Assembly: GCA_023131975.1 (NCBI GenBank)
Contig: JAGLYV010000078.1
Span: forward strand, 3,712 to 67,711
Direction of reading: 5' to 3'
Origin: Candidatus Krumholzibacteriia bacterium
GTDB taxonomy: Bacteria; Krumholzibacteriota; Krumholzibacteriia; Krumholzibacteriales; Krumholzibacteriaceae
Length of the DNA: 64,000 bases
Within the stretch, counting starts at the first letter, position 1. Every line of letters starts with the position of its first letter. The notes under the pieces were generated by a model. That model was not told the origin of the DNA and ran no database searches. It saw nothing but the letters and a program-made list of their open reading frames with translations. The position numbers were made by a program, and so were the translations under genes. Shown one piece after another: positions 18,712 to 45,009 of this stretch.

Positions 18712-19426
18712 AAAAGCTCCTCATACCGAGCTGACCCAGAAAAGACTTCCCGACCAGATCGGCGATCACACAATCAAATCGTTCTATCCCGGCTCCCCCG
18801 ATCGGGAGAAAGAGAGTTCCTCTGTAATCATCCAGTCGAAATCCGGAATCTCGAAGCATATCGCGGACTTCACGAGGAGCTAGAAACCTGTGTGGCCCCT
18901 CACCATGATGGAATTTCAATATCCCGTTAAGAACGCTTGTCCATTCGGCAAAAGAAGGAGGCAAGCTCATCACGAGTCGTCCTCCATCGACTACCACCCT
19001 CCGCAGCTCTTTCAGGAACAGTAGTGGATCAGGAACATGCTCCAGCGTCTCCAGCGACATTATTCTGTCAAACGAATCATCGAGGAATGGGAGTTCGTGA
19101 AGTGACGTCTGAACATGAGCCTCTTCCGGATTCAGCCTCCTGCTGCCCCTTAACATCTCCAAAGAGAGTTCCGCGTTTACAAGCTTGATTTCCGGACAAT
19201 CCTTTCTCAGCCAGGGGGTACCGTCTCCGATCCTCGACCAGATATTCAGCAGTCTTGTTCCCGGGGCAAGATCGAGTCTCTTCACAGCCTCCCGGAACCT
19301 TTGTGTATGCACGCGATCAAGTTGTTCGTTCGCGTGTTCATATTCATGCTCGGCTATTCCATCCCAGAATACCCGTACTTCATCCATTGTAAAATCGTTG
19401 GCGTATCTACTACTCATCGTTGACAT
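18689..19426 (-). CDS. Class I SAM-dependent methyltransferase
   Basis: 245 aa with a Rossmann methyltransferase core (LNIWSRIGDG..., DDSFDRIMSLETLEHVPDPLLFL..VVDGGRLVMS). Its 3' end overlaps the FrhB-like gene by 23 nt. Confidence 0.7.
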   Translation of the reverse strand: MSTMSSRYANDFTMDEVRVFWDGIAEHEYEHANEQLDRVHTQRFREAVKRLDLAPGTRLLNIWSRIGDGTPWLRKDCPEIKLVNAELSLEMLRGSRRLNPEEAHVQTSLHELPFLDDSFDRIMSLETLEHVPDPLLFLKELRRVVVDGGRLVMSLPPSFAEWTSVLNGILKFHHGEGPHRFLAPREVRDMLRDSGFRLDDYRGTLFLPIGGAGIERFDCVIADLVGKSFLGQLGMRSFYVCTAAV

Positions 19427-20402
19427 CCTCCGTCTTCTTTTCCAGAGGTGCCACCAGCCAGCATACCAGCCCGGTCACTCCCTGTATCAGATAGACAAGA
19501 ATAAAGGAGAGGGAAAAAGTCACTGCCGCTTCCCTCGAAAGCCCCACCCTGCTGAAGACCATTATAAGAACAAGTTCTCTCGTGCCGAGTCCTGACAGGG
19601 AAACTGGTATAAGTGCGGTAAAAATGGCCGCAGAAACACTTACTATCAAAATATGAAATGACGCGCCCGTTCCGACCCCATCGGCCAGAAGGATAAACAC
19701 TCCGAAATGAAGCACCCATGCTATAGCTGATAACAAGATCACCAGAGCCAGGCCGGAATGCCTGAGAGTGGAAAATTCACCTACAGCCTCCCCTATCCCC
19801 TTGTCTATGTTTCCTCTGAGAGACCCTTCCGAAGCGCCGGAGAGAAATTTCCCGGCAATCCGGCTCAAAAGGTCCCTGCGCCAGAAAAGAACCAGGAAGA
19901 CAACCGCGACGGATACCAGCAGGATACCACTTAAAAGAATCTGGTTATTAAAGATACCGGGGAATGAGACAAGACTGGCGAACCCTATCAGGACAAGAAA
20001 CCCCAGATCAAACAATCTGTCAGCCACTGAGCTGTATACAGCTTTGCCGGCCGACATCCCGCCCCGCATCAGATAGATGCTCTTGATAAAATCACCCAGG
20101 CGACCGGGGGTAAGAAATCCCAGATATAGAGCAGATGAATATATCGCGAACGCGCGCACAAGAGATATTTCTCCGCCCTGCATTTTTACAATGGTTCTCC
20201 ATCTCATGGCTTTGACCAGCGTAAAGGACAGGAGGATCAGAACGGTACCGGACATGTGCAGAAAACTTAAACCGGAAAACGAATCTCTCACAGACCGAAG
20301 GTCCACTCTTGACAGGATCACAACGAACAGGGCTATCCCCGCGATCTGAAATGCCGTTCTCAGGATTTTCTTTTGTGAAAATTCCATCTCAGTAACCCGC
20401 AT
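19410..20402 (-). CDS. Polytopic membrane protein, flippase-like / LPG-synthase-TM-like (UPF0104) family
   Basis: 330 aa with about 8 TM segments and no soluble domain. It has the characteristic pairing with an adjacent GT2 polyprenyl-phosphate glycosyltransferase. Confidence 0.55.
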   Translation of the reverse strand: MRVTEMEFSQKKILRTAFQIAGIALFVVILSRVDLRSVRDSFSGLSFLHMSGTVLILLSFTLVKAMRWRTIVKMQGGEISLVRAFAIYSSALYLGFLTPGRLGDFIKSIYLMRGGMSAGKAVYSSVADRLFDLGFLVLIGFASLVSFPGIFNNQILLSGILLVSVAVVFLVLFWRRDLLSRIAGKFLSGASEGSLRGNIDKGIGEAVGEFSTLRHSGLALVILLSAIAWVLHFGVFILLADGVGTGASFHILIVSVSAAIFTALIPVSLSGLGTRELVLIMVFSRVGLSREAAVTFSLSFILVYLIQGVTGLVCWLVAPLEKKTEDVNDE

Positions 20403-20404
20403 GG

Positions 20405-21265
20405 TCAGTCAAGCTTTCTCTCTCTTCTCAATGCGGAGATCTGGTCTGCCATTATGCCCATGAAAAACAGAAGTACACTGGTCAGGATGGTCAGAACTCC
20501 GATATTCGGCGCTCGTCCGAACCGCAGAATACCGTAAATCGTAAACAGGATACCGACCCCCATCATCACTATGGATACTGGCACAAAGACCTTAAGCGGA
20601 TTAAAAAGGACGATGACCCTTATGATGAGAAGAAATGTCTTGTAACCATCTTTGAAGAAACTCACATTGCTCGCTCGTCCGACTCTTGCTTCGGCGGGTA
20701 TCGGCAGATACTTCACGCTGTACGCCGATCTCAGATAGGCAAGCGTGATCGTAGTAGTGAAAGAAAAGCCATTCGGGCAAATATGAAGGAACTGGAATAT
20801 CGTCTCTTTCCTGAAAGCCCGGAATCCCGAGTTCAAATCAGGAATATTCATACCACTAAGGTAATTCGCGACCAGCGACAGAACTTTTTTGCCTGGGGCC
20901 CGCATACCTTTCGACTGGCCTCTGGCACCCACGACCATGTCGTACTCGCCGATCTGGCCTATGAGCTTTTCTATATCAGCAGGATCATGCTGTCCGTCAC
21001 TGTCCATCATGACCACGGTATCTCCATTAGCATTCCTGATACCTGTCTTAAGGGATGCCCCATACCCCTTGTTATAAGGATGTCTGCACACTCGCGCTCC
21101 CGATTCGGCTGCTATTTCGGCGGTCCTGTCAGAGGACCCATCGTCTATGACGATCACTTCCCAGTTCTTTTCACCGGCAAGCCTCATCAGGTCATTGAGG
21201 AATTTCGCGAGCCCCGTCTCCTCATTGTATGCGGGAATGATAATTGTCACATCATATCCGTTCAT
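20405..21265 (-). CDS. GT2 polyprenyl-phosphate sugar synthase (DPM1/GtrB/ArnC-like) with two C-terminal TM helices
   Basis: Motifs IIIPAYNEE, VIVIDDGSSDRT, MDSDGQHDP, and C-terminal helices (VLFNPLKVFVPVSIVMMGVGILF, VLTILTSVLLFFMGIMADQI) as in ArnC/GtrB. Confidence 0.8.
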   Translation of the reverse strand: MNGYDVTIIIPAYNEETGLAKFLNDLMRLAGEKNWEVIVIDDGSSDRTAEIAAESGARVCRHPYNKGYGASLKTGIRNANGDTVVMMDSDGQHDPADIEKLIGQIGEYDMVVGARGQSKGMRAPGKKVLSLVANYLSGMNIPDLNSGFRAFRKETIFQFLHICPNGFSFTTTITLAYLRSAYSVKYLPIPAEARVGRASNVSFFKDGYKTFLLIIRVIVLFNPLKVFVPVSIVMMGVGILFTIYGILRFGRAPNIGVLTILTSVLLFFMGIMADQISALRRERKLD

Positions 21266-21761: not shown

Positions 21762-23267
21762 TTATCTCGTTGTCAACCTCATTCCTATCCTGCCCCGGGC
21801 ACTTTCGTACATTTTTATATATTCACTGGCAGAATTACCCCAGGAATGGTCTTCCTTCATCATCCTGATGCGAGCCTTCTCGACAGCTTTAGAGTTATTG
21901 TAAAACTTCAGGGCTCTTTTTATCGTGTCGGTCAGGGCTTCGGGTGTGTAGTCTTCAAACGTAAATCCGTTACCCTTTCCACCACCGGAAGTCAGCTCAA
22001 AAACGGTGTCCTTAAGCCCACCGGTCGCCCTGACGACAGGTATGGTCCCATAACGCAGGCTATACATCTGATTAAGACCACAGGGCTCATACCTCGACGG
22101 CATCAGGAAGAAATCACTTCCAGCCTCTACGAGATGCGCGGTAGCATTGTTGAACACCAGCTTGACGCCCATTTTCTCCGGATACTTCTTTCGCAATTCT
22201 GTATAGAGATCATGATATTTTTTCTGTCCCGTACCCAGGATAACAAACTTAAGATCGAGATCCATAAGTTCATCGAGCGCCTCGGATAGTATATCGAAAC
22301 CCTTCTGGTCAACAAGCCTTGAGACGATACCCAGCACAGGCTCATCTCCAGCCGGCAGCCCGAAATCCTTGAGAAGCTGATCTTTGTTCTTCTTCTTTCC
22401 GGAAAGATCGGAAGCAGTGAAATTATGAGAAATAAGTTCGTCCTTTTCAGGGTCCCACGCATCCGGGTCGATTCCATTCAGAATACCGACAAGGTCGTCT
22501 TTCCTGTAGGTAAGGACACCCTCAAGCCCGCAACCGAACTCCTCGGACATCGATATCTCTTCGGCATATGTCCTGCTGACAGTATTGATGACCCCGGAGA
22601 ACATGAGGGCCATCTTCATGAGATTCACCCTTCCCCAGAACTCGAACGGACTCATCGGCTGAAACAGCTCGGGATCCAGCCCCGCCTTTTCCAGAAAATC
22701 TGGCTCGAAGATGCCCTGGTAAGCCAGATTGTGTACGCTGAAGACTGTTCCAGCTTCACGAAGATCTGGATTTCCGGATTCCTCTATTGAAAGGTAGACC
22801 GGTATCAGGCCGGCATGAAAATCATTGCAGTGGATGACGTCCGGTTTAAGACCAAGCGCCTTTATCGATTCCATGACCGCCCTGTTGAAGAAGATGATCC
22901 TCTCATCCTCATCTTCGTAGGCGTCTCCGGTCTCCGGCACGGTGTATATCCCGGCTCGTCCGTAAAAATGGTCATTATCGATAAAATAGACCTTTATCCC
23001 CGTACCGGGTTTCAAACAGCTCTGGAGGTTGAATTTATGGATCTTTCCATCGACCTCAGCATCCAGGGTACCGATCTTTGATTCAGGTCTGATCTTGAAT
23101 TTCTCCCTGTCTATCTCTGAATAAAGAGGGGTGAATATCGTCATCTCACAGCCGAGTTTCTCAAGTTCATCGGGGAGAGCTCCCACCACATCGGCAAGGC
23201 CTCCTACTTTGGAAAACGGGACTATCTCCGTCGAAACAAGTGCTACTCCGAGAGTTTTTTCCGCCAT
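21762..23267 (-). CDS. glgA: Glycogen (starch) synthase, ADP-glucose type (GT5)
   Basis: Starts MAEKTLGVALVSTEIVPFSKVGGLADVVGALP..., a canonical GlgA N-terminus with the KVGGL motif. 501 aa. Confidence 0.85.
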   Translation of the reverse strand: MAEKTLGVALVSTEIVPFSKVGGLADVVGALPDELEKLGCEMTIFTPLYSEIDREKFKIRPESKIGTLDAEVDGKIHKFNLQSCLKPGTGIKVYFIDNDHFYGRAGIYTVPETGDAYEDEDERIIFFNRAVMESIKALGLKPDVIHCNDFHAGLIPVYLSIEESGNPDLREAGTVFSVHNLAYQGIFEPDFLEKAGLDPELFQPMSPFEFWGRVNLMKMALMFSGVINTVSRTYAEEISMSEEFGCGLEGVLTYRKDDLVGILNGIDPDAWDPEKDELISHNFTASDLSGKKKNKDQLLKDFGLPAGDEPVLGIVSRLVDQKGFDILSEALDELMDLDLKFVILGTGQKKYHDLYTELRKKYPEKMGVKLVFNNATAHLVEAGSDFFLMPSRYEPCGLNQMYSLRYGTIPVVRATGGLKDTVFELTSGGGKGNGFTFEDYTPEALTDTIKRALKFYNNSKAVEKARIRMMKEDHSWGNSASEYIKMYESARGRIGMRLTTR

Positions 23268-24314
23268 TTATTTTTCCTCTACCTTCTGTTCTTCCTTATT
23301 ATTTGCTGTTACGAGTTCAATGTCGATATCCCTGAGTATACGCGCCGCGTCTTCCGGCGGAGTAGGGTTGATATAAAAACCGCTTCCCCATTCGAATCCG
23401 GCGACCCTGGTCAACTTCGGCATTATTTCGATATGCCAGTGATAATAATCAAGATCCGGCTGATTGCACGGAGAAGTGTGGATTATGAAGTTGAAAGGTG
23501 GTTCGTCGAGGGCAATATCCAGCCTCAGCAGAACGTTTTTCATTATGTCGGCCAGCTGCGGGAACCACTCCGTGGGCGTCTGTTCGAAAGCCGATATATG
23601 CTTCAAAGGCAGGACCCAGGTCTCAAAGGGAAATCGCGCAGCGTAGGGCGCGATGGCGATAAAATGATCGTTCTGGTAGACGATCCTTTTCTCTTCTTTT
23701 ATCTCCTGCATGAGGATATCACAGAAAATACATCGTTCCTTAAGGTCATAATGAAATTTTGCTCCGGTCAGCTCCTCGATCGCCCTCTTCGGGATGATCG
23801 GAGTGGCAATGATCTGAATATGGGAATGCTCCAGGGAAGCTCCAGCTTCTTCCCCCCAGTTCTTGAAAACAAGAATATATCTGAACCTGGAATCCCTCTT
23901 CAGGTCCAGGCAACGTTCCCTCAGGGCCCAGAAGATCGATTCGACATGGCTGTCAGAAAGGTACTGGAGGTTCTTTGAATGATCGGGTGATTCGATGAGG
24001 ACCTCGTGAGCCCCGACTCCCCGCATCATATCATAGATACCGTCACCTCTCTTATCGAGGTCACCTTCGATCTGAAGAGCGGGAAATTTATTGGGAACTA
24101 CCCGAACACTCCAGCCTTCTTTGTCAGGCAGGGACTTCGGGTCTCTATAGGCAAGGACTTCAGGGGGCGTCTTGTCTTCGTTCCCGTTGCAGAAGGGACA
24201 GAACCCGCCTTTTGGAGGCAATTTCTCTCTCTTGAAATCGTCAGGCCTTTTGCCCCTTTCGGTGGAGATAATGACCCACCGTTCCATTATCGGGCTCTTG
24301 CGTAATTCCGGCAT
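23268..24314 (-). CDS. galT: Galactose-1-phosphate uridylyltransferase family (HIT-like hexose-1-P nucleotidyltransferase)
   Basis: 348 aa with a Cys-rich zinc site (CPFCNGNE) and an HxHxQ active-site motif (SLEHSHIQII). Its stop abuts the glgA start, so they are probably co-transcribed. Confidence 0.6.
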   Translation of the reverse strand: MPELRKSPIMERWVIISTERGKRPDDFKREKLPPKGGFCPFCNGNEDKTPPEVLAYRDPKSLPDKEGWSVRVVPNKFPALQIEGDLDKRGDGIYDMMRGVGAHEVLIESPDHSKNLQYLSDSHVESIFWALRERCLDLKRDSRFRYILVFKNWGEEAGASLEHSHIQIIATPIIPKRAIEELTGAKFHYDLKERCIFCDILMQEIKEEKRIVYQNDHFIAIAPYAARFPFETWVLPLKHISAFEQTPTEWFPQLADIMKNVLLRLDIALDEPPFNFIIHTSPCNQPDLDYYHWHIEIMPKLTRVAGFEWGSGFYINPTPPEDAARILRDIDIELVTANNKEEQKVEEK

Positions 24315-25036: not shown

Positions 25037-26197
25037 TCACATCCTGTCATCTTCGAGCTGTTTTCCTGCTCCATGGATCAAGTCAAGATAGAATCTTTCC
25101 GTGCGTTCCGCGACTGAGTCCCAATTGTACTCTTCCTCGATCTTCTTTCTTCCGTGACTGCCCATCCACGAGGCCCGGCTGTCATCCAAAACGATCATCT
25201 CCCTCAATCCCCTGCCCAGATCACTTTTGTCCCCTCTTTTGAAAATCGCTCCGACCTTTCCCGCGACTTCAAGGTTTTCCGGAATATCGCTGATCAGCAC
25301 CGGTCTTGAAAAACTCATCGCCTCCATAAGTGAGATCGGAAGACCCTCTACCAGCGAAGGCAAAACGTAGAAGGCACAGTGAGCGTACAATTCATCCAGG
25401 TTTTCCCCGGCGACATATCCCGGGAATATCACCCTGTTGTCAGCGATTCCATGCAGTTTTCGCGCATATTCGACTTCAAACCTCTCGTCACCTACAATGA
25501 CGAGCTTCATGTCCGTATCGATTTCGGACCATGCTTCCAGCAGAGTATCGAATCCTCTTTCGACTATGAACCGGCCTACGGTGAGGATAAATTTCCCACT
25601 TTCGATTCCCAACCCGAGGAGGTCCCTTAGGGGTGGGCTTTCTCTGAGCGTAGCACCATTTGGAATGTAAACGACTTTCGAAGAATATCTCGATGACAGA
25701 TCCTCCGCCATCAGTTTCGATACAGCTATCGTCGCACTGGCAGACCTGACTGCTCGCGCCTCACCCTTGCGTAAAAGGTATTTTACCACCCTTCCCCACT
25801 TGCTCTGCCTGTAATCGAGAGCATGAACGGTTGAGACAGTCAGTTTATTCGCCATCACGGGTATCCCCGCGAACAGCGAAGGGCCTATCCCATGATAGTG
25901 GATGATATCAAAAGGTCCTGACAGAGCTTTCATTGTTGCTATGAAAGAGTGTGTACCCGCATCCAGATTCTTTGTGGGGATAGACGGCAGCAGTCTCACA
26001 TTCATTCCGAGATGCTCTCCGTCAATACTGAAAGGTTTACGGCCGAAAACGGTTATCTCATGCCCCCTGCCCGCAAGGCGTCTCCCTATTTCCTCGACAT
26101 GCCTTTCTATACCTCCGAATAACGCGGGAAGACCTTTCGACCCGATCATCGCTATCTTCAGATTTGAATTGCCATCTTTATTCATGATCAGACTCAT
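25037..26197 (-). CDS. GT4 family glycosyltransferase
   Basis: 386 aa with N- and C-terminal GT-B Rossmann halves (..LMEAMSFSRPVLISD.. in the C-domain). Confidence 0.8.
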   Translation of the reverse strand: MSLIMNKDGNSNLKIAMIGSKGLPALFGGIERHVEEIGRRLAGRGHEITVFGRKPFSIDGEHLGMNVRLLPSIPTKNLDAGTHSFIATMKALSGPFDIIHYHGIGPSLFAGIPVMANKLTVSTVHALDYRQSKWGRVVKYLLRKGEARAVRSASATIAVSKLMAEDLSSRYSSKVVYIPNGATLRESPPLRDLLGLGIESGKFILTVGRFIVERGFDTLLEAWSEIDTDMKLVIVGDERFEVEYARKLHGIADNRVIFPGYVAGENLDELYAHCAFYVLPSLVEGLPISLMEAMSFSRPVLISDIPENLEVAGKVGAIFKRGDKSDLGRGLREMIVLDDSRASWMGSHGRKKIEEEYNWDSVAERTERFYLDLIHGAGKQLEDDRM

Positions 26198-27192
26198 GTG
26201 ACAGAAATATCTCTTCTCAACAATAACAACAACCAGTTTTTAAGTATCCATAAAACAGGCTTTACAGGATTTCTTTTCATAGAGGCTCTGGCAGTGCAGA
26301 TCATCCAGCACGAAAGCGTACATTTATCGACTACTTTGCGGACCTTTTCCGCTTGTTCGCTCTTCCATATCTCTTCAATGGTATTTTTCGTGACATCACC
26401 CATCTCCTGTTCCAGGGTAAGACAGGGGAACACTTTGCCATTCGGATCGATGAACACGGAATCCCGCCCGGCTCTGCATCCAAGCGCCCTCCGCCCCACG
26501 CTGTTGTAATAAAGGACTCCCGAATAAAAATATGCTCTCAGCCATCGCTTCGGGCTGAAGCTCCCGAGCTCTTTCTTCATGACATACTTCAACTCATTCT
26601 CGAGTTCTCCTGGTTCGACCTGCTGATTGTCCTTTGTCGAGAAGTAAAAATCGGAGTTCTGAGCAACTGACGTAGTAAACTGGAACCCAAACTGCCTGGA
26701 CAGGTCATATACGGCTCCCAGATGCCTGACATTCTCCTTCTGCGCGGTAAAAGCAACCCTGACATTTCTGTATCCGAGTTTTTTCAGTTGCGTCAGAGTC
26801 TCGACGATCTTTTTGAATCCATCCTCGACACCTCTGATCTGGTCATGCATTTCTCCGATTCCGTCCAGTGATACTGCTATTCCGATCTTCCTGCTTATCT
26901 TCTTGAGAGAAGGCGCGGCATGGGCGATCCTTCTATTCTGAAAACCATTTGTCGATATCACGATCCGTGGATGCCCACAATGATCATATATACTACGGAC
27001 CATATCCACGATATCGTCTCGCAGGAAAGGCTCGCCCCCGGTTACATTCAGGTCATTCACGGTCGATGGAAGCTTCTTCACATCTTCGATATCGAACTCC
27101 ATTCCCGCCGGCAGCTTCCAGATATTGCACATATTGCACCTGGAATCACATCTGTATGTCACGGCCAGCACCGCGTCGAACGGCAACGCCAT
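26194..27192 (-). CDS. Radical SAM enzyme with C-terminal Cys-rich (SPASM-like) extension
   Basis: CxxxCxxC cluster motif near the N-terminus (YRCDSRCNMCN). A C-terminal Cys cluster (...CLTLEQE...CTLSCWMICTARAS) is also present. Start and stop overlap the flanking GT4 genes. Confidence 0.7.
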   Translation of the reverse strand: MALPFDAVLAVTYRCDSRCNMCNIWKLPAGMEFDIEDVKKLPSTVNDLNVTGGEPFLRDDIVDMVRSIYDHCGHPRIVISTNGFQNRRIAHAAPSLKKISRKIGIAVSLDGIGEMHDQIRGVEDGFKKIVETLTQLKKLGYRNVRVAFTAQKENVRHLGAVYDLSRQFGFQFTTSVAQNSDFYFSTKDNQQVEPGELENELKYVMKKELGSFSPKRWLRAYFYSGVLYYNSVGRRALGCRAGRDSVFIDPNGKVFPCLTLEQEMGDVTKNTIEEIWKSEQAEKVRKVVDKCTLSCWMICTARASMKRNPVKPVLWILKNWLLLLLRRDISVT

Positions 27193-33898: not shown

Positions 33899-34627
33899 TC
33901 AGGTGTTGTTGGCTCCGGTCTTCGCAACCAGATTGCCCGCTTTTAAAAGAGATTCGAATGTTCCCGCGTCCGTCCACCAACCGTCGAGGATGTCCCAGGC
34001 AAGCTCTCCCCTGTCGATGTAGGCGTTGTTGACATCGGTGATCTCGAGCTCACCGCGGCCCGAAGGCTTAAGAGTCTTGATAATATCGAAGACCGTGTTG
34101 TCGTACATGTAGATCCCTGTCACGGCGTAACTGGATCCGGGTTTGGCGGGTTTCTCCTCTATCTTGACGACTCTTTCACCTTCAAGCACAGGCACGCCGA
34201 ACCGCTCCGGGTCCGGGACTTCCTTTAGGAGTATTCTGGCTCCAGAATCCTGCTTCCTGAATGCATCGACTGCTGCAGCAATATTCTTCTCTATGATATT
34301 GTCTCCCAGTACTACACAGATGCTTTCGTCACCGGCGAAGTACTCAGCCAGCTTCAATGCCTCGGCGATTCCCCCCTCACCCTCCTGATACGTATAATTG
34401 ATATGCTCCAGCCCGAATTTGCTCCCGTTTCCCAGCAGCCTGAGAAAATCACCAGCGTTATTCCCTCCGGTGACGACGAGGATATCACGTATATCAGCAT
34501 CGATAAGTGTCTGTATAGGATAGTAGATCATCGGTTTGTCGTGTACGGGAAGCAGATGCTTGTTGGTTATTTTTGTCAGGGGCAGAAGCCGGCTGCCGAG
34601 CCCCCCGGCCAATATAATTCCCTTCAT
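33899..34627 (-). CDS. Sugar-phosphate nucleotidyltransferase, short RmlA-like form (glucose-1-phosphate thymidylyltransferase family)
   Basis: MKGIILAGGLGSRLLPLTKITNKHLLPV. The SD AAGGAG lies upstream. Confidence 0.7.
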   Translation of the reverse strand: MKGIILAGGLGSRLLPLTKITNKHLLPVHDKPMIYYPIQTLIDADIRDILVVTGGNNAGDFLRLLGNGSKFGLEHINYTYQEGEGGIAEALKLAEYFAGDESICVVLGDNIIEKNIAAAVDAFRKQDSGARILLKEVPDPERFGVPVLEGERVVKIEEKPAKPGSSYAVTGIYMYDNTVFDIIKTLKPSGRGELEITDVNNAYIDRGELAWDILDGWWTDAGTFESLLKAGNLVAKTGANNT

Positions 34628-34884
34628 CGATCGATTCTCCTTTTTTCATGTTCAAGACCGGGGCAGTATAGCAATACTCCCGGCCAAACTCAAGCTTATA
34701 CCCGCTGATCAGCATATTTATCATTGTACGAAGAATCGATTAACGCTACTATGACTGTTCGTGGAGTGTAATTACCAAGTCCTTATCGCACTGGTCCCCG
34801 ACCGCTGATTCAACCAGGATCTTTGAGGACCAGCGACGATCGATCAGAGAATCAGATTTTCTCGCTCTCAGCAGGAGACAGGTG

Positions 34885-35562
34885 ATGCCAAAAATGACAC
34901 CCAGCCACAAGCCGTTCGAAATCCGGGACTGCGCTCTGGCAGCGGTCGCTACAGGCGTAAAGGCCCAGAACCTGAAAGAATTCTGTGACGCTATCGGGAA
35001 GATCGAACCTGAGAGTATTTACTATCACTTCTGGGGGGGGCTCCTCAAACCGAGGTTCGACGATCCGGAATATCACAACGATTTTGCTGCCTGGGCCAGC
35101 CACGCCCTTCATGACAAGATCCTTGCGGAGAGACTGTCGGTTCTCGACCCATCGGAAATCCCCGATCTCGAAAAAATCCGCGCTGAACTTATTGATATCA
35201 TAGAAGAAAGACTCGACGAAAACGAATATGTGCCTTGGTGCAAACGCGACCAGCAGTTTCATTTCATCACATCACAGATTGTTGTTTTCGATACACGAAA
35301 GACGATTTCAAAAGCCAATGAACTTGTCAAAATCATACCTTCGCTGACTTCCAGCAGCATCTTCTACCATTTTATCGACGCCCGCAGGAGGACATTCGGA
35401 AATATAGACGATTTCAGCAGTTGGCTCTACGGTTTCGCCGACAAGCATTCCGACCTTTGTTGTCTCCTGGCTACGATAGACCCTTTCTTCTCGACGCTCC
35501 CCGAACTGAAGTCTCAGATCGCGGATATAATGAAGGAGTATTTTCAGGGGGGTGAGAAATGA
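34885..35562 (+). CDS. Uncharacterised conserved protein translationally coupled to treT
   Basis: About 225 aa, predicted soluble and helical, with no recognisable catalytic motif. The stop overlaps the treT start (ATGA). The SD AGGAGA lies 7 nt upstream of the ATG at 34885. Confidence 0.5.
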   Translation: MPKMTPSHKPFEIRDCALAAVATGVKAQNLKEFCDAIGKIEPESIYYHFWGGLLKPRFDDPEYHNDFAAWASHALHDKILAERLSVLDPSEIPDLEKIRAELIDIIEERLDENEYVPWCKRDQQFHFITSQIVVFDTRKTISKANELVKIIPSLTSSSIFYHFIDARRRTFGNIDDFSSWLYGFADKHSDLCCLLATIDPFFSTLPELKSQIADIMKEYFQGGEK

Positions 35563-36803
35563 GAACCTCAATACTCGATAAATACGCTGACATAGTCGGG
35601 TGGGACGTGATCGACCAGCTTCATCAGCTTGTGGCTCCCCTCAGGGACATAAAGATAGTACATGTCAACTCCACGCGCAAGGGAGGCGGGGTCGCCGAGA
35701 TCTTGAACAAGCTCGTTCCTCTTAAGAGGGAACTCGGAATGAACGTGTCATGGGAAGTCGTAGAGGGGAACGATGATTTCTTCAAGTGCACCAAAAGTTT
35801 TCATAACGGTCTTCAGGGTGACAAGGTGGAGATCCCCAGATCTCTTCTTGATTCATATGAGCGGGTTAACGAAGAGAACGCCGACAAGCTGAGAGGAAAA
35901 TTGACGGATGCTGATATCGTTGTAATCCATGATCCCCAACCAGCCCCCCTCTTACGTTTCATTCCTGAAAGGAAGGGAAAATGGATATGGCGTTGCCATA
36001 TCGATGCAAGTCATCCCGACAGGTTCGTGTGGAAATACCTTCGCGATTTCATTGTGGAGTACGACGCGAGCATATTCTCTCTTGCGGCGTTTGCACAGCC
36101 TCTTCCCCATACCGAATTCCTGATACCGCCCAGTATTGATCCTCTGAGTGACAAGAACATCGAACTCGACCGAAAAGAGATCGAATCGACCGTCTCGAAC
36201 CTGGGTATAGACACGGAACGTCCGATCATGCTGCAGGTTTCCCGTTTCGACCGTTTCAAGGACCCGGTCGGTGTCATCCAGGCCTACAGGCTTACCAAGA
36301 AATTCGTACCCTCCTTGCAGCTCGTTCTGGCGGGCGGGGAAGCGACCGACGATCCAGAATCACAAGCAGTGCTCGAAGATATCAATATAGCCGCCAACAA
36401 AGATACGGATATTCATATCCTTGTTCTTCCGTCCGACGCGCACAGGACCATAAACGCTCTTCAGAGAGCATCCGATATAGTATTGCAGAAATCCACACGG
36501 GAAGGATTCGGGCTCACCGTGACCGAAGCCATGTGGAAGGGAAAACCTGTCATAGGCGGAGACACCGGCGGTATCAGGATACAGGTAGTAAATCATCGCA
36601 CGGGATTCCTTGTGAACACCCCTGAAGGAGCCGCGCTTCGTGCCCGTTACCTGCTCTTCCACCGAGACAAGCTGATGGAGATGGGATCGACCGCGAAGAA
36701 ATTCGTTAAAGAAAACTTCCTCCTTACAAGGCATCTACGCGAATACCTTACCGTAATGGTCTCCATAATACACGGCGAAAAAGACAGGATCGAGCTTGAT
36801 TAA
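35559..36803 (+). CDS. treT: Trehalose glycosyltransferring synthase (TreT-like GT4; NDP-glucose + glucose -> trehalose)
   Basis: 414 aa, near-colinear with remembered archaeal/Thermotogae TreT (VHVNST..GGGVAEIL..LVPL, WRCHID, PPSIDPLSDKN, QVSRFD, QRASDIVLQKSTREGFGLTVTEAMWKGKPVIG). Confidence 0.7.
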   Translation: MRTSILDKYADIVGWDVIDQLHQLVAPLRDIKIVHVNSTRKGGGVAEILNKLVPLKRELGMNVSWEVVEGNDDFFKCTKSFHNGLQGDKVEIPRSLLDSYERVNEENADKLRGKLTDADIVVIHDPQPAPLLRFIPERKGKWIWRCHIDASHPDRFVWKYLRDFIVEYDASIFSLAAFAQPLPHTEFLIPPSIDPLSDKNIELDRKEIESTVSNLGIDTERPIMLQVSRFDRFKDPVGVIQAYRLTKKFVPSLQLVLAGGEATDDPESQAVLEDINIAANKDTDIHILVLPSDAHRTINALQRASDIVLQKSTREGFGLTVTEAMWKGKPVIGGDTGGIRIQVVNHRTGFLVNTPEGAALRARYLLFHRDKLMEMGSTAKKFVKENFLLTRHLREYLTVMVSIIHGEKDRIELD

Positions 36804-36830
36804 AAGATTTTTACGACACAGGTATCTCTC

Positions 36831-37622
36831 GTGAAGGTGATTAGAGAAGGAGTGGATCTTGAAGCCTTTCTGAGGTCCCTGCGCGCCAGAAAGGAAAGAG
36901 TGCTCCTACTCGACTACGACGGAACACTCGCTCCGTTCAGGGTAAAAAGATCGATGGCCTTTCCATACGAAGGAGTAAGGGATCGTATATCAACTATACT
37001 GAGACTGGAAAGATGCAGGACTGTGATTATCTCGGGCAGGAGCATAAAAGATTTGCCCCCGTTGCTCGGCATTCATCCCCTACCCGAGATATGGGGATGC
37101 CACGGATGGGAAAGGCTTTACCCAGATGGAACCTACGCTGGACCAACACTCGGGAATGAGACTGAAAAAGCGTTCAACCTTATCCGGTCATGGGCCGCAA
37201 GTAAAGATATCGGATCACGGTGCGAATCAAAGCCGGCATCGATTGCCGTACACTGGCGCGGAATCGATGAAAGCAAAGCAGAATCAGAGAGAATATCCCT
37301 CGAGACAGATGTGGTTCCGAATCTGAAAGACGCTGGCATAGCAGTTAGAAGATTTGACGGAGGGCTCGAATTTGTCGCCACTGGAAACGACAAGGGGACT
37401 GCGGTGAAAACAATCCTGCGAGAGAGCGGAGATGACGCAGCCATAGTCTACATGGGCGATGACCTTACCGACGAAAAGGCGTTCGAGGCCCTGAGTAAAA
37501 AAGGGCTCTCCCTCCTTGTAAGACCGGAATTCAGGAAGACCGCCGCCGATGCATGGCTTATCCCTCCAGGTGAGCTCCTCGATTTTCTTGATTACTGGAT
37601 AGAAGGATGTGCACTCACATGA
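36831..37622 (+). CDS. otsB: Trehalose-6-phosphate phosphatase (HAD family)
   Basis: Has the HAD motif I LLLDYDGTLAP, a later GDD motif (YMGDDLTDE), and a probable GTG start. Confidence 0.75.
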   Translation: MKVIREGVDLEAFLRSLRARKERVLLLDYDGTLAPFRVKRSMAFPYEGVRDRISTILRLERCRTVIISGRSIKDLPPLLGIHPLPEIWGCHGWERLYPDGTYAGPTLGNETEKAFNLIRSWAASKDIGSRCESKPASIAVHWRGIDESKAESERISLETDVVPNLKDAGIAVRRFDGGLEFVATGNDKGTAVKTILRESGDDAAIVYMGDDLTDEKAFEALSKKGLSLLVRPEFRKTAADAWLIPPGELLDFLDYWIEGCALT

Positions 37623-39109
37623 ACAGCGAAACTGCGGCTTATAAAAGGCTTGTGATAGTATCCAACCGGCTTCCTTTCGTTCTTGAGAAGTGCGGAGACG
37701 GATGGACTGCGATTCCGGGTTCAGGCGGTCTTGTAACGGCCCTTGCCCCCGTACTCAGAAACCGCGGAGGCATATGGATCGGCTGGCCCGGCATCTCCGA
37801 ATCCGCCGACATATCCGAACTGGTCGAAAAAGCCTCAAAAGATGCGGGGTTTTCGATGACACCCGTAATGCTCAACAAGGATGAGGTTCTGAACTATTAT
37901 GTAGGTTTTTCAAATGAAGTCATCTGGCCGCTCTTTCACGATTTTCAGTCCTACTGCAACTTTGACCCCCGTTACTGGGAAATTTATCAAAAGATAAATT
38001 CGAGGTTTGCTTCTGTAATTGCCGAAAATGCCTCCCCGGAGGATTTTATATGGGTTCATGACTATCACCATATCTGTGTGGCCACCGAACTGAGAAAGCT
38101 GAACGTATCCTCCCGGCTCGGATTCTTTCTGCATATACCATTTCCTCCTCTGGACCTCTTTGTCAAGCTCCCCTGGAGATATGAGCTGCTGCGGGCGATG
38201 CTCGACTACGACCTTATAGGATTCCAAACTCTTCGCGACCGACGGAATTTCACACAGTGTCTTGGGGCCTTTGTAAAAAACATCCGCACGAAGGGGACAG
38301 GACGGCTTCTTTCAGTGGAATTTGAAGGACGGACGAGACTCGTAGGAGCATTCCCTGTCAGCATCGATTACCGGGAATTCTCCCAGATGGCCAGGACACG
38401 CGAAGTGGCTGACAGAGGGTGGTTTATTCATGAAGACATCCCGGACAGAAAGATAGTGCTGGGTGTGGATAGACTTGATTATACCAAGGGCATCATTTAT
38501 CGACTCAAGGCTTTTGCGAGACTGTTGGAAAAACACCCTGAGATACACAGGATGATCACACTAGTACAGGTCGTCGTTCCAAGCAGAAGGAACATTCCCA
38601 TATACGAGAACCTCAAGGTTGAGATCGAAAGACTCGTGGGCGAGATCAACGGGAGGTTCACAAAATCAGGATGGGTGCCTATTCATTATATATTCCGATC
38701 CCTGTCAAGGACCGAACTCCTTGCGTATTACCGATCGTCTGAAATAGCTATAGTCACGCCTCTCAAGGACGGCATGAACCTCGTGGCCAAAGAATATTGT
38801 GCTTCGAGCATCGAACAGACAGGGGCGCTTATACTCAGTGAGTTTGCCGGAAGCGCGCATCAGCTCCAAACCGGGGCTTTTATCGTCAACCCCTATCACA
38901 TCGATGAAGTCGCGGATGCGATATACACGGCCTTCAAAATGAATCAAGAAGAACTCAAGGTTCGAATGAAAAAAATGCAGAAATCCATAACCAGGCAGGA
39001 TATATACTGGTGGGTCGATTCATTCCTGAACGCGGCCATATCAGGAAAACTCAAGGATTTTCCTTTTCTCGAAGAACTCAGCCATGATACCGAACCCAAG
39101 TCGGAGTGA
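37619..39109 (+). CDS. otsA: Alpha,alpha-trehalose-phosphate synthase (UDP/ADP-forming), GT20
   Basis: Starts LVIVSNRLP..., with WIGWPG, VHDYHH and [10 protein letters not shown] motifs typical of OtsA. It overlaps the otsB stop. Confidence 0.85.
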
Positions 39110-39184
39110 CAAGACAATCTCGACGATATTTCCTGTGACAGGGAAGGTTAAGGACCCTCTGGCAACTTCTAACGGAGGCGAAGG

Positions 39185-40015
39185 ATGAAAGTCTGTTTCT
39201 TTTCATCGCCCGCCGCATGATCGAGAACGGGATCAGGGTCTCTTTCATCACCGGTGACCACGGCCAGCCGGATGTGGAGATCTACGATGACATCGCTATA
39301 CCGCCACGGAATCCTCTCAGCAGACGCGATAATCGCCCAGACCGAAAAACAGCGTGGACTCCTTAAAGAAAATCTCGGTGTCGACTCGATTCTCATAAGA
39401 AACGGCATACCGCTGGCAACCGATATCGATCCACCCCTGCCGACTCATCCCTCTGATTTCTCTGGTTCCGGAGCCCGGACCCAACGACCGGGATTCCTCT
39501 GGGTAGGCAGCTTTAGAAGGAGAAAACGCCCCGAACTGTTTTTGGAGCTGGCTCGGAGGATACCTGACGCGTCTTTTACGATAATCGGTGGAGGTGGCGA
39601 CGATCCTGCCTACCACGAGGAGATCGTGAGAGAAATAGCCGCACTTGAGAATGTCGATTATCCGGGATTTATGAAACCGGGCGATATCGACCGTTACTAT
39701 TCAAAAGCGTACGCATACGTCAATACATCCACTCTCGAAGGGTTTCCGAACACCTATCTCCACTCCTGGAGATATGGTGTGCCTGTGCTGACCATCGAGA
39801 TAGATCCTGATTCCCTTATCGAGAATAACGGTATCGGCGCCTGCACCGGCGATCTGGAAGGCCTTGTATCCTCTGCCAGAAGATTGCTCGACGATCCTGA
39901 AGAGAGATCGTCCATGTCGTCAAGATCGATCGATTATGTCCGGAAAAATCACGATATCAGGGATAAGGCAGACCAATATATAACTCTATTCAACGACCTT
40001 CTCGATCGTTCCTGA
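39185..40015 (+). pseudogene. Frameshifted/truncated GT4 glycosyltransferase remnant
   Basis: A good SD (AACGGAGGCGAAGG) and ATG at 39185 give MKVCFFSSPAA, then a stop. Reading continues in two other frames. An intact GT4 C-terminal domain (FLWVGSFRRRKRPELF...TSTLEGFPNTYLHSWRYGVPVL) is preserved from 39254 onward. The N-terminal Rossmann half is only about 70 codons across three frames, against about 180 expected. Confidence 0.45.
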
Positions 40016-42360: not shown

Positions 42361-45009
42361 TTACGAGCCGGGACGGATGAGTACTCTTGTAATTTCATAT
42401 CCATTAGCACTGTCCCTGTTTCGCAGGTAGTCGTGGATCTTTCTGTTGGGCAGATACGAGGCTTCCTTCACTGATATTCTGAAAGTATATACTCCGGGAG
42501 ACATCCCCTCGGGGACATGTATCCGGAATTCCTGCCTGACAGGAGAATCACTCCACTGATCAGGAAATGCCCTTCCCCCCATTAATCTTTCGGATCTTGT
42601 CGTCCTGAAAAACATTCCCTGACGTCTTTCGATAATTCTTCTATATTGCTTGTCATACCATTCCCTGTAGAATGCCCCTTTTGGAAAATCGGTATCCAGC
42701 CGCACCGTCCATTCAAGGGGAAGACCGAAATCAACTCCGTGTACAGCCCTCCAGCAGAAAGAACCTTTCAGTGTGTCTCCAGACACGATCTCTCTCGAAT
42801 CCATCCATATACTTTCAAGCCGGATCCCGGTGTCCGGAAACTCTTTTCCGGAAAGAATACGCAAGCTGGAATCGTATGGAATATCTTCGTCGAGGAATGC
42901 TTCCACATCTTCCCCGCATTCAGACGGTCCGGTCACAGAAGTAATAAGTCCATCTGATATCAGATCCCCCGGGCAATCCACATCGACCGAAAAGAGGAGG
43001 AACCTGCCGTTTCGAGATATCTCGTTCAAAACAGGTCCAGCAGATCGGAATTTCAACAGAATATCGTTTGTCGCATCGACTGGCACGGTGCTGAAAAAAT
43101 CACAGGACACTTCTCGCTCCGTATCCACAACCAGATAACCGACTCCCTCTGTTTTCAGCCACTCCAGGCTTTCCCACATGGGTACTACCGGGCTGAAAAG
43201 ATCCCGGGTATTCTCGATCCTTTCTACCGCATGGGGGTCAGATGGGGAACCGTGTTGCCCCAGGATGACAGTCACAAAATGGTCCGTCACAGCTGAAATC
43301 AGATAACTTGTTTCCGGATCCGAACTGATAACGGAGTTCGAAGGCAGCTCTGAAAGAAGACCCTCTATGTCCGAGATCGCTTCTCCTTCATCAGCCTCCG
43401 GCTGACCGGCGAGACTTCCTGTGACCTTATAAGCATCGATAGCAGCGGTCCTCAAAGGTAACGCGATCAAAGCGATCAGGATGATAGCCAGGGTCCTCAC
43501 CAGCAATCTGTTCCACCACGCCACCTGCCCCGCAGTTTTATTGATTCTTCCACTGACCAGGAGACGTAACGAGCCGACAGTCAAAACGGATAGTACACAT
43601 GCCATCGGAGCAGCATCCAGCAGCCTGTAGTACAGGTATCCACTGAGGGATATCAGGAAAGTCGATGTCAGGGGGTTGAAAACGAGGAGTGCTGGCAGAA
43701 GGAACATAAGTCCCGCAAGAAATCCATATTCCCTTATTCTACCTGATATGAAAATGAACGGTGAGAGAAGAGCAATGAAAAAGAAAGAAAGCCCGGAATA
43801 CGACAACACTTCAGCGGGATCCACAACAGAGAGTGTCCTGCCTATCATCAAAAGACCCTGCGCGTGAGTATGTATTTCGTTAAAATCTCTCCCTGAGATC
43901 AATAGTCGAATGATCAGGGGCAGAACAATCGCCACAAGTATGATCGGAAACGCAAATCCAAGTCGCACCCTCCACTTCGCTCCTCTTCCCGGAAACATAC
44001 TGTACAGGAAAAACGAAACCATTGTGATTCCGAGCAACAGGGGAAAGACAATATGGACCGCGACTCCAGCCAGTGACAGGATCGCTGCATAGACAAGGTT
44101 CCATTTCCCACTGCCTTTGATATACCGGATTATGTATCCAGCCGTAAGCCAGTATAGCGCCATCATCATGTTTTTGCTGTAACCGGCTTTGGTCAGCCAC
44201 ACCAGGCCTTCTCCATGTATGAGGAGAATAAGGAAGACAGATGCAAGGATCGTGAGGGCCAGTGACCTCAGGATCTCTCTCGCAAACACCCAGAAGGCTA
44301 ACAGATAGAAGAAAGCAAGAAATGAGGGAAGCATGCGCCAGAGGATCAGGGGAGAAGTATCAGCCATGAATACCCATAGTGCCACAACAGGATGCCATGC
44401 GCCTTTCCGTGGATCAAAAAGGCCCCCGTCACCACCTTTAAAAAATGAATCAGCAGGAAAGAGGCGACCTGTCTCGATACTTCTGCCTATATAGCTCAAA
44501 TGATCGGGGGCATCTGTCGCGATTCCCGTCTCACCACTCCCGAAATAGAATACAAAGAGGAGAAGAAACATCGCAGAGCCAAAAAACAGGAGTGCTTTTC
44601 GTTCGCGTGGAGCCAACTCATCGCCTGTTCCAAGAATCCCTACGAGGTCCCCTCTTTCGCAGGGATAGGGATACCCGCATCTTACAAAGACAAGTACGGC
44701 CATCCCGGCTGTAGCAACAACCCCCATGACAGCGATTACAGGATAATCCAGTCCAGGAATCAAACCGAGGCTCACAAGCAGGATCGAGTAGATCAGCCCC
44801 GAAGAAAAGACCCGTGATAACCCTTCCACGGTCACGGTCAATTTCCCGAAAAATAGATAGTTGATGTATATCCCCGGCAAGACAAAGATAGACAGAAATG
44901 CCAGTGCGACCCCGACTATCTCCAGCCCCGGAATGACTCTGAAAGCGGTCAGAAGGGAAAGACCCAGTATCGATATAGAAATAACAAGTGCAGTCGTTCT
45001 CTTGTTCAT
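42361..45009 (-). CDS. Large GT-C-fold membrane glycosyltransferase candidate (YfhO/ArnT-like: about 14 TM helices plus a roughly 280-aa C-terminal extracytoplasmic domain)
   Basis: 882 aa with long hydrophobic stretches through about residue 600, then a soluble tail. Located downstream of an ArnE-like 4-TM protein and a soluble GT2 polyprenyl-P sugar synthase. This is the same gene logic as csbB-gtcA-yfhO and arnC-arnE/F-arnT. Confidence 0.4.
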   Translation of the reverse strand: MNKRTTALVISISILGLSLLTAFRVIPGLEIVGVALAFLSIFVLPGIYINYLFFGKLTVTVEGLSRVFSSGLIYSILLVSLGLIPGLDYPVIAVMGVVATAGMAVLVFVRCGYPYPCERGDLVGILGTGDELAPRERKALLFFGSAMFLLLFVFYFGSGETGIATDAPDHLSYIGRSIETGRLFPADSFFKGGDGGLFDPRKGAWHPVVALWVFMADTSPLILWRMLPSFLAFFYLLAFWVFAREILRSLALTILASVFLILLIHGEGLVWLTKAGYSKNMMMALYWLTAGYIIRYIKGSGKWNLVYAAILSLAGVAVHIVFPLLLGITMVSFFLYSMFPGRGAKWRVRLGFAFPIILVAIVLPLIIRLLISGRDFNEIHTHAQGLLMIGRTLSVVDPAEVLSYSGLSFFFIALLSPFIFISGRIREYGFLAGLMFLLPALLVFNPLTSTFLISLSGYLYYRLLDAAPMACVLSVLTVGSLRLLVSGRINKTAGQVAWWNRLLVRTLAIILIALIALPLRTAAIDAYKVTGSLAGQPEADEGEAISDIEGLLSELPSNSVISSDPETSYLISAVTDHFVTVILGQHGSPSDPHAVERIENTRDLFSPVVPMWESLEWLKTEGVGYLVVDTEREVSCDFFSTVPVDATNDILLKFRSAGPVLNEISRNGRFLLFSVDVDCPGDLISDGLITSVTGPSECGEDVEAFLDEDIPYDSSLRILSGKEFPDTGIRLESIWMDSREIVSGDTLKGSFCWRAVHGVDFGLPLEWTVRLDTDFPKGAFYREWYDKQYRRIIERRQGMFFRTTRSERLMGGRAFPDQWSDSPVRQEFRIHVPEGMSPGVYTFRISVKEASYLPNRKIHDYLRNRDSANGYEITRVLIRPGS

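Follow-up and report, generated by a model that had tools for sequence, protein, structure and literature searches.

An orfY-treT-otsB-otsA trehalose cassette within a Krumholzibacteriota polysaccharide locus and the DUF5752 protein encoded ahead of TreT

The closest known system to the gene pair considered here is orfY-treT of Thermoproteus tenax, in which orfY was reportedly described upstream of treT by Kouril et al. in 2008 (Arch Microbiol 190:355). Structures exist for T. tenax OrfY (4CSO, released in 2014) and for Thermoproteus TreT (6ZJ4 and related entries), the TreT structure paper being that of Mestrom et al. The same organism has a stress operon, msc-gt-tpsp, that combines trehalose-6-phosphate (T6P) synthase, T6P phosphatase and a GT4 glycosyltransferase with an MscS-type channel; its GT4 is a PimA-like protein that activates TPSP by complex formation (Zaparty et al. 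2013, PMC3634074). In E. coli and other bacteria, the genes for the HAD-IIB T6P phosphatase and the GT20 T6P synthase adjoin, otsB coming before otsA and its stop codon overlapping the otsA start. The malEFG-treT-trmB clusters of Thermococcales encode a TreT of the same family as that described below (PF21269 plus a GT4 C-terminal domain), set beside an ABC sugar transporter and TrmB in an uptake-linked use of the enzyme. The TreT reaction has been reported as reversible in Pyrococcus horikoshii and not in T. tenax (PMC13597711), and TreT of Sulfolobus acidocaldarius adds to in vivo trehalose synthesis beside the TPS/TPP route (PMC7688234).

Here we compare these systems with a cassette in a 64,000-nucleotide stretch of contig JAGLYV010000078.1 from a Candidatus Krumholzibacteriia bacterium, referred to as the window. 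The cassette resembles msc-gt-tpsp in joining T6P synthase, T6P phosphatase and a GT4 gene, but synthase and phosphatase are separate genes, the GT4 is a true TreT, and the channel gene that accompanies many related cassettes is absent from this copy. Its otsBA pair is arranged as in E. coli, yet is preceded by orfY-treT in the same operon, and its OtsA is closest to an actinobacterial enzyme (5JIJ). Unlike the Thermococcales genes, its treT is found without an ABC-transporter/TrmB context.

Gene layout and enzyme assignments

The ORF listing of the window contains four tightly packed, co-directional genes on the + strand between 34885 and 39109, preceded by a divergent intergenic region:

34628..34884, no strand assigned: intergenic region between an rmlA-like gene (- strand) and orfY (+ strand), the presumed promoter/leader
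34885 (ATG)..35562, or from GTG 34882, + strand: orfY, DUF5752 family protein of 225 aa (226 aa from the GTG)
35559..36803, + strand: treT, GT4 trehalose glycosyltransferring synthase (EC 2.4.1.245) of Thermoproteus type, 414 aa
36831..37622, + strand: otsB, HAD-IIB trehalose-6-phosphate phosphatase, 263 aa
37607..39109, + strand: otsA, GT20 trehalose-6-phosphate synthase, 500 aa (496 aa from ATG 37619)

The initial annotation had described a four-gene trehalose module lying within a surface-polysaccharide locus, its first gene coupled to treT by an ATGA overlap, and the ORFs, the family matches, all well outside chance expectation, and the junction confirm both points. At the orfY/treT junction (GAGAAATGAGAACC), the treT ATG at 35559 overlaps the orfY stop TGA at 35560-35562 (ATGA, -4 nt), with a G-rich Shine-Dalgarno-like run shortly upstream of the overlap; orfY itself has an AGGAG about 7 nt upstream of its ATG at 34885. 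A gap of 27 nt separates treT from otsB, which overlaps otsA by 16 nt when the latter is read from ATG 37607 or by 4 nt (ATGA) from the in-frame ATG 37619, the overlap in relatives such as locus L001 also being 4 nt.

The GT4 had been called near-colinear with TreT, and this holds over the full length of the protein. The N-terminal domain matches PF21269 over model positions 1-144 of 144 (E = 2e-57) and the C-terminal GT-B domain matches Glycos_transf_1 (PF00534, E = 1.8e-24). The best solved relative is Thermoproteus TreT 6ZJ4 (E = 8.5e-129, 52% identity, residues 6-401 against 2-393), followed by Pyrococcus TreT 2X6Q (E = 1.6e-109), while the next family, BshA-like, reaches only E = 3e-12. 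The protein scores 433 bits with the Thermoproteus type and 370 bits with the Pyrococcus type, and is thus nearer to the former; its 404.8 bits against NF041139 (TreT_Thcocales) fall below the cut-off of 775, that model being specific to Thermococcales and the window TreT belonging to the Thermoproteus-type, OrfY-linked branch. In an alignment of bacterial and archaeal TreTs, the motifs HDPQPA, WRCHID, PPSIDPL, QVSRxDxxKDP and E315-x7-E323 are invariant, and the donor-site motif of the window protein reads QVSRFDRFKDP. From general knowledge of GT4 enzymes, we take this R/K phosphate-binding motif and the E-x7-E pair to be catalytic or donor-binding. A mannosyl- or glucosyl-glycerate synthase, the alternative assignment raised at the outset for this gene, is rejected, as it had no match in the family or structure searches.

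The remaining two genes form the canonical OtsB-OtsA pair that had been proposed. OtsB matches Trehalose_PPase (PF02358, E = 1.6e-17, 63.9 bits against a cut-off of 27) and TIGR00685 (74.6 bits, above the cut-off of 68.05), and its PDB matches are T6P phosphatases throughout. OtsA covers positions 2-470 of the 473 in Glyco_transf_20 (PF00982, E = 1.3e-138), scores 522.8 bits against TIGR02400, narrowly under the equivalog cut-off of 564.85, and only 340 bits against the model for glucosylglycerol-phosphate synthase, a rival GT20 function with a cut-off of 569. Among its PDB matches 5JIJ ranks first (E = 1.6e-112), and the 17 highest-scoring are all T6P synthases. The donor nucleotide of the window OtsA is uncertain because 5JIJ is the OtsA of M. 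thermoresistibile, which prefers ADP-glucose. By homology, TreT would form trehalose in a single step from free glucose and NDP-glucose, and OtsA would form T6P from NDP-glucose and glucose-6-phosphate for dephosphorylation by OtsB; one-step and two-step routes thus appear to be encoded side by side, as originally noted.

The DUF5752 family and the distribution of the cassette

The 225-aa product of the first gene, initially listed as uncharacterised and as a candidate new accessory or regulator of TreT, is assigned by profile search to the Pfam family DUF5752 (PF19027; E = 7.6e-82, 274.1 bits against a cut-off of 23, model positions 2-207 of 208). It is a full-length homologue of T. tenax OrfY and shares its fold, so it belongs to a known family for which a structure has been solved and is not a new protein; the proposed linkage to treT stood, and the newness did not. 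OrfY is an acidic protein with an internal duplication and an orphan fold, the family having a median pI of 5.16 and a net charge of -11. An alignment-based model of OrfY (pLDDT 76.7) was used in preference to an AF2 single-sequence model (pLDDT 41). About 36 positions are invariant, many of them polar or aromatic (D15, C16, E32, Y47, H48, W50, N65, D66, H162, R168, R169, D176 and W180), a pattern that suggests a ligand-binding or interface site. Among the papers searched, nothing relevant to DUF5752, OrfY or 4CSO was found.

Homologues of OrfY co-occur with treT in every context that we looked up. In all 80 bacterial loci found with OrfY, treT lies immediately downstream on the same strand, the distance between stop and start being -4 nt in 49 loci, -1 nt in 17, and between -20 and +10 nt in all 80. 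The three crenarchaeal loci (Pyrobaculum, Saccharolobus and Thermoproteus) likewise place TreT after DUF5752, the two genes overlapping by 4 nt. DUF5752 also forms the C-terminal cytoplasmic end of MscS-like channels, in MscS(beta-domain)-DUF5752 fusions that make up three separate clusters at 50% identity from independent assemblies; treT was directly downstream of the fusion gene in both of the clusters whose context was looked up. DUF5752 joined to a Mak_N_cap, alpha-amylase or EAL domain was seen in single members only, and these cases were set aside as possible assembly artefacts. Such strict adjacency of orfY and treT would also be expected of an autoregulator encoded first in its own operon.

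Downstream of this core the content varies. Where 4 kb or more of downstream sequence is available (51 loci), 40 loci have otsB and/or otsA and 14 have an MscS channel gene, which in bacterial cassettes is often inserted between otsB and otsA; orfY-treT without otsBA occurs in the other 11 and also in Crenarchaeota. Hosts of the cassette include Krumholzibacteriota, Desulfobacterota, Bacteroidota, Zixibacteria, Planctomycetes and Acidobacteriota, among others. The three Pyrococcus/Thermococcus-type treT loci that we looked up are all ABC-transporter/TrmB clusters in which DUF5752 is absent, and on the basis of these three OrfY marks only a single TreT subtype. The window operon is therefore a further copy of a widespread cassette whose orfY-treT core is common to many bacterial phyla and Crenarchaeota. 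A literature search on Krumholzibacteriota with trehalose and on treT/otsA/otsB clusters returned no description of an orfY-treT-otsBA cassette.

With textbook enzymes and a catalogued first-gene family, the window itself offers little that is new. A modest wider interest lies in OrfY, which has had a structure since 2014 and which, in both bacteria and archaea, is tied to one TreT subtype in every locus examined. Krumholzibacteriota, Desulfobacterota and other uncultured lineages of this kind have their trehalose capacity as a portable cassette, which helps when metagenomes are read for tolerance of osmotic stress or desiccation.

Upstream region and polysaccharide surroundings

The intergenic region 34628..34884 contains no ORF, and an Rfam scan of 34400-39400 gave no match. 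Scans for sigma-70-like promoters (7 observed against 5.5 expected) and terminators (10 observed against 5.7 expected) were at chance level, with no + strand terminator found downstream of otsA. Palindromes upstream of orfY are weak, and no shared operator is clearly conserved in the aligned upstream regions of 16 relatives.

The surrounding polysaccharide locus extends from about 17.4 to 56 kb of the window. It includes genes for two priming transferases (Bac_transf), about eight GT4/GT2 genes, and DegT, RmlC-like, RmlD and RmlA-like genes. Also encoded are a Wzx-type flippase, a Poly_export/Wza protein and a P-loop ATPase of the AAA_31/ParA type with a resemblance to a BY-kinase. AglF-like matches had suggested an archaeal (methanogen) origin, which is rejected because all close relatives are bacterial. 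The cassette forms a compact, separate unit, and GC content is even at 0.49-0.51; this uniformity, together with the synteny kept in the clade, argues against a recent horizontal insertion into the locus. In 14 of the 16 loci of the closest clade the glycan flanks are kept, one flank carrying Bac_transf, DegT, RmlC-like, RmlD and RmlA-like genes and the opposite flank GT4 genes together with the gene for a membrane protein of 882 aa, while two close relatives (L002 and L010) are without them. At 64 loci from other phyla, none of 19 flank genes was present at any. The position within the glycan locus is probably inherited synteny of a Krumholzibacteriota-like clade, and not a functional need of the cassette.

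Proposed role of OrfY and competing explanations

These observations are probably best explained jointly by one orfY-treT-otsB-otsA operon that encodes two routes to the compatible solute trehalose, with OrfY regulating TreT and the glycan position inherited. Because of its gene content (trehalose enzymes, with MscS in many cassettes), the operon may act in osmotic or desiccation stress. OrfY would be translated in step with TreT, its likeliest role being that of a sensor or regulator of the synthase-type enzyme that neither catalyses a reaction nor binds DNA, one that may tie TreT activity or direction to osmotic state or trehalose level. We favour such an osmosensing or regulatory partner over a transcription factor because of the MscS fusions, the acidity, the lack of a DNA-binding match above noise and the absence from the three Pyrococcus-type treT loci looked up; with the fusions on one hand and the differing, transporter-linked TreT on the other, this is a concrete, testable hypothesis. 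We offer more tentatively, as a possibility, that OrfY docks on synthase-type TreT as an osmosensing module, either free and produced in step with the enzyme or as the tail of an MscS-like channel, the orfY-treT-otsB-(mscS)-otsA cassette then being a self-contained, horizontally spread osmostress unit. By docking, OrfY would make trehalose synthesis, or the direction of the reaction, responsive to membrane tension, ionic strength or the amount of trehalose.

The depositors of 4CSO labelled OrfY a transcription factor in the PDB, and a DNA-binding protein of this kind could act at the intergenic region ahead of orfY to autoregulate the operon. This is unlikely given an acidic family (median pI 5.16) with no helix-turn-helix or winged-helix match above noise and no DNA-binding domain in a Pfam scan, aligned upstream regions without a conserved operator, and DUF5752 forming the cytoplasmic end of MscS-like channels whose genes still adjoin treT. 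The 4- or 1-nt orfY/treT overlap in 66 of the 80 loci also counts against it, since near-equimolar synthesis with TreT would follow. Two synthetic routes within one operon seem redundant, so that TreT might instead run mainly in reverse, from trehalose and NDP to NDP-glucose and glucose, recycling trehalose after stress while OtsAB synthesises it and OrfY gates the direction. The reversibility reported for P. horikoshii TreT (PMC13597711) would allow this, but we judge it improbable: the window enzyme is nearer to the Thermoproteus type, lacks the transporter/TrmB context of Pyrococcus-type genes, and has a synthetic counterpart acting in vivo alongside TPS/TPP in S. acidocaldarius (PMC7688234).

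A functional tie to the polysaccharide locus, proposed initially as shared regulation with EPS production or as use of trehalose or T6P as a glycan primer or acceptor, found little support and seems very unlikely. The shared flanks of the 14 closest loci speak for it, and a clade-specific link to glycan synthesis is conceivable, for example through NDP-glucose donor provided by the divergent rmlA-like gene. The link to EPS is nonetheless weak, as the flanks are missing from all 64 loci of other phyla and from L002 and L010, the self-contained cassette is transcribed away from its rmlA-like neighbour, and the recurrent extra partner elsewhere, the MscS channel, points to osmoregulation. There is, finally, only a slight chance that the TreT-like GT4 also, or instead, serves as a protein activator of OtsA or OtsB in the manner of the T. 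tenax GT-TPSP complex (PMC3634074), for which the common parts list of GT4, TPS, TPP and, in many cassettes, MscS channel is suggestive. The T. tenax activator is PimA-like and not a TreT, whereas the window GT4 retains every motif invariant among TreTs, including E-x7-E, and orfY-treT persists in the 11 of 51 bacterial loci and in the Crenarchaeota that have it without otsBA.

Gene identities in the trehalose operon

Four genes on the plus strand, in a region of flat GC content, make up the trehalose operon.

Genes of the trehalose operon (window coordinates)
34882 (GTG start) or 34885 (ATG start) to 35562, + strand: orfY, 226 or 225 aa; DUF5752 (PF19027), Pfam E 7.6e-82
35559-36803, + strand: treT, 414 aa; TreT_GT1 (PF21269), Pfam E 2e-57; Glycos_transf_1, Pfam E 1.8e-24
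36831-37622, + strand: otsB, 263 aa; Trehalose_PPase, Pfam E 1.6e-17; TIGR00685 (NCBIfam), 74.6 bits, exceeding the cut-off of 68.05
37607-39109, + strand: otsA, 500 aa; Glyco_transf_20, Pfam E 1.3e-138

The initial annotation was correct in these gene calls and in proposing translational coupling of orfY and treT: the four ORFs are co-directional, and the orfY/treT junction in the window sequence is a true ATGA overlap (GAGAAATGAGAACC) preceded by a G-rich ribosome-binding run. A gap of 27 nt separates treT from otsB. The longest otsA ORF overlaps otsB by 16 nt, while a start at the in-frame ATG 37619 gives a 4-nt overlap, again ATGA; the relative L001 has a 4-nt otsB/otsA overlap in longest-ORF calls.

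The assignment of the GT4 protein to TreT is borne out by solved structures and motifs. Its match to Thermoproteus TreT 6ZJ4, of a series that we take to be the T. uzoniensis TreT structures, has an E-value of 8.5e-129 with 52% identity over 391 aligned residues, and that to Pyrococcus horikoshii TreT 2X6Q an E-value of 1.6e-109, while the next-best GT4 family reaches only 3e-12. The motifs HDPQPA, WRCHID, PPSIDPL, QVSRxDxxKDP and E315-x7-E323 are invariant when the protein is aligned with archaeal and bacterial TreTs. Because of these structure matches and motifs, the alternative of a mannosyl- or glucosyl-glycerate synthase is ruled out. The protein falls under the Thermococcales-specific equivalog cut-off of NCBIfam. 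A second set of solved TreT structures is ascribed to T. uzoniensis (PMC11046441). PDB matches of OtsB are exclusively trehalose-6-phosphate (T6P) phosphatases, and the top of the OtsA list consists of T6P synthases only (5JIJ, E 1.6e-112), with OtsA narrowly missing the TIGR02400 cut-off (522.8 against 564.85 bits).

OrfY and its linkage to treT

The 225-aa protein had been put forward as a candidate new TreT accessory or regulator. This was overstated, as the protein belongs to DUF5752 and has a structurally solved homologue, and hence is no orphan: almost all of it aligns to PDB 4CSO from Thermoproteus tenax (E 2e-20), an entry titled “OrfY protein, transcription factor”. Kouril et al. (2008) reportedly introduced the name orfY for the T. 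tenax gene that precedes treT. In a large protein collection, the family falls into some 3,200 clusters at 90% identity, or 992 representatives at 50% identity. OrfY is an internal duplication whose N and C halves share 28% identity (E 2e-4) and each carry a YHF...(N/D)DFxxW motif. Polar and aromatic residues account for many of its roughly 36 invariant positions.

Scanning genomes with OrfY gave more than 451 relatives, and the best 80, all bacterial, were examined. In every one of these 80 loci treT lies directly downstream on the same strand, at a distance always within -20 to +10 nt of the orfY stop (-4 nt in 49 loci and -1 nt in 17). A 4-nt overlap of the DUF5752 gene with treT is also found in Pyrobaculum ferrireducens, Saccharolobus solfataricus and one Thermoproteus MAG, so that the co-occurrence of orfY homologues with treT holds in 80/80 bacterial loci and three archaeal genomes. 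Where at least 4 kb of sequence follows treT (51 loci), otsB and/or otsA is present downstream in 40 (22 as otsB-otsA, 10 as otsB-mscS-otsA and eight partial). The operon in the window is thus another example of a known, widespread kind.

In contrast, treT of the Pyrococcus/Thermococcus type is found in ABC sugar-transporter/TrmB clusters that have no DUF5752 neighbour (3/3 loci).

Pyrococcus/Thermococcus-type treT genes
L087, 4001-5245
L088, 4001-5245
L089, 4001-5245

TreT therefore occurs in two distinct genomic contexts, and OrfY marks one TreT subtype, which includes the Thermoproteus enzyme. The latter is reported to be unidirectional (PMC13597711).

Mechanosensitive channels and the role of OrfY

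With the enzymes assigned, the remaining interest lies in the role of OrfY, for which fusions with MscS-type mechanosensitive channels supply a testable hypothesis. An MscS-type gene is the extra gene within the cassettes of other phyla (14/51 loci), usually placed between otsB and otsA; the window cassette has none. In addition, an exhaustive profile search found longer proteins (P0241, P0264 and P0226) with DUF5752 placed after the MscS beta-domain, replacing the C-terminal domain of the channel. These fusions recur in several independent assemblies, and treT directly follows the fusion gene in both clusters whose context was looked up.

MscS-type channel genes within cassettes (selected loci)
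L019, 8891-10051
L045, 8637-9767
L052, 8700-9776
L064, 6271-7353

MscS-DUF5752 fusion genes
L081, 2948-4330
L082, 199-1581
L083, 6001-7095

The PDB title of 4CSO would make OrfY a transcription factor. A classical factor of this kind is unlikely, since the family is acidic (median pI 5.16), can form the cytoplasmic tail of a channel and has no recognised DNA-binding fold; no conserved operator was seen upstream of orfY. We infer instead that OrfY would partner TreT as a sensor or regulator. An osmoregulatory role of the whole cassette would fit the parallel with the msc-gt-tpsp stress operon of T. tenax (PMC3634074).

In the P. ferrireducens locus (L084), an MscS-type channel gene (2621-3643, - strand) is divergent upstream of orfY-treT with one small ORF between, and a sugar ABC transporter lies downstream.

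The surrounding glycan locus

Housekeeping genes extend to about 17 kb of the window, followed by a polysaccharide locus to about 56 kb, within which the trehalose operon is divergent from an rmlA-like gene. The reported embedding is real and represents clade-level synteny: 14 of the 16 closest loci, in Krumholzibacteriota- or Latescibacteria-type MAGs, share the flanks, which are missing in the close relatives L002 and L010 and in all 64 loci of other phyla (80 loci compared). The window probably stems from the lineage of the MAGs that share the flanks. With flanks so limited to the clade, the proposed co-regulation with exopolysaccharide production or glycan-primer role is only weakly indicated. 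Across the operon region, an Rfam scan gave no match, and promoter and terminator scans remained at chance level.

Several other genes of the window were noted.

Other genes of the window
17410-21265, - strand: row of FrhB/FdhB-like protein, methyltransferase, LPG_synthase_TM protein and GT2 in the glycan locus
21762-24314, - strand: GlgA-type glycogen synthase (Glyco_transf_5) and GalT/HIT-like protein
26194-27192, - strand: radical-SAM/SPASM enzyme flanked by two GT4 genes in the glycan locus
39185-40015, + strand: decayed GT4 gene right after otsA
42361-45009, - strand: 882-aa multi-pass membrane protein in the glycan locus
56286-58007, + strand: 573-aa protein with a C-terminal PanD (aspartate decarboxylase) domain

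The GT4 remnant reflects either gene decay or misassembly: 'MKVCFFSSPAA*' at 39185-39220 matches the start of a 378-384-aa GT4 found at the equivalent position in relatives, residues 26-63 follow in a different frame, some 78 residues (64-141) are gone, and residues 142-369 lie at 39287-39994. PanD (residues 454-561) is the only Pfam match of the 573-aa protein, whose N-terminal ~450 residues have none, which is unusual for PanD. The 882-aa membrane protein has no Pfam match and is conserved at 37-43% identity in three compared loci (L009, L011 and L012). The GlgA and GalT/HIT-like genes lie towards the housekeeping-gene end of the polysaccharide locus. In L081, too, a GlgA gene is present, directly upstream of the MscS-DUF5752-treT unit.
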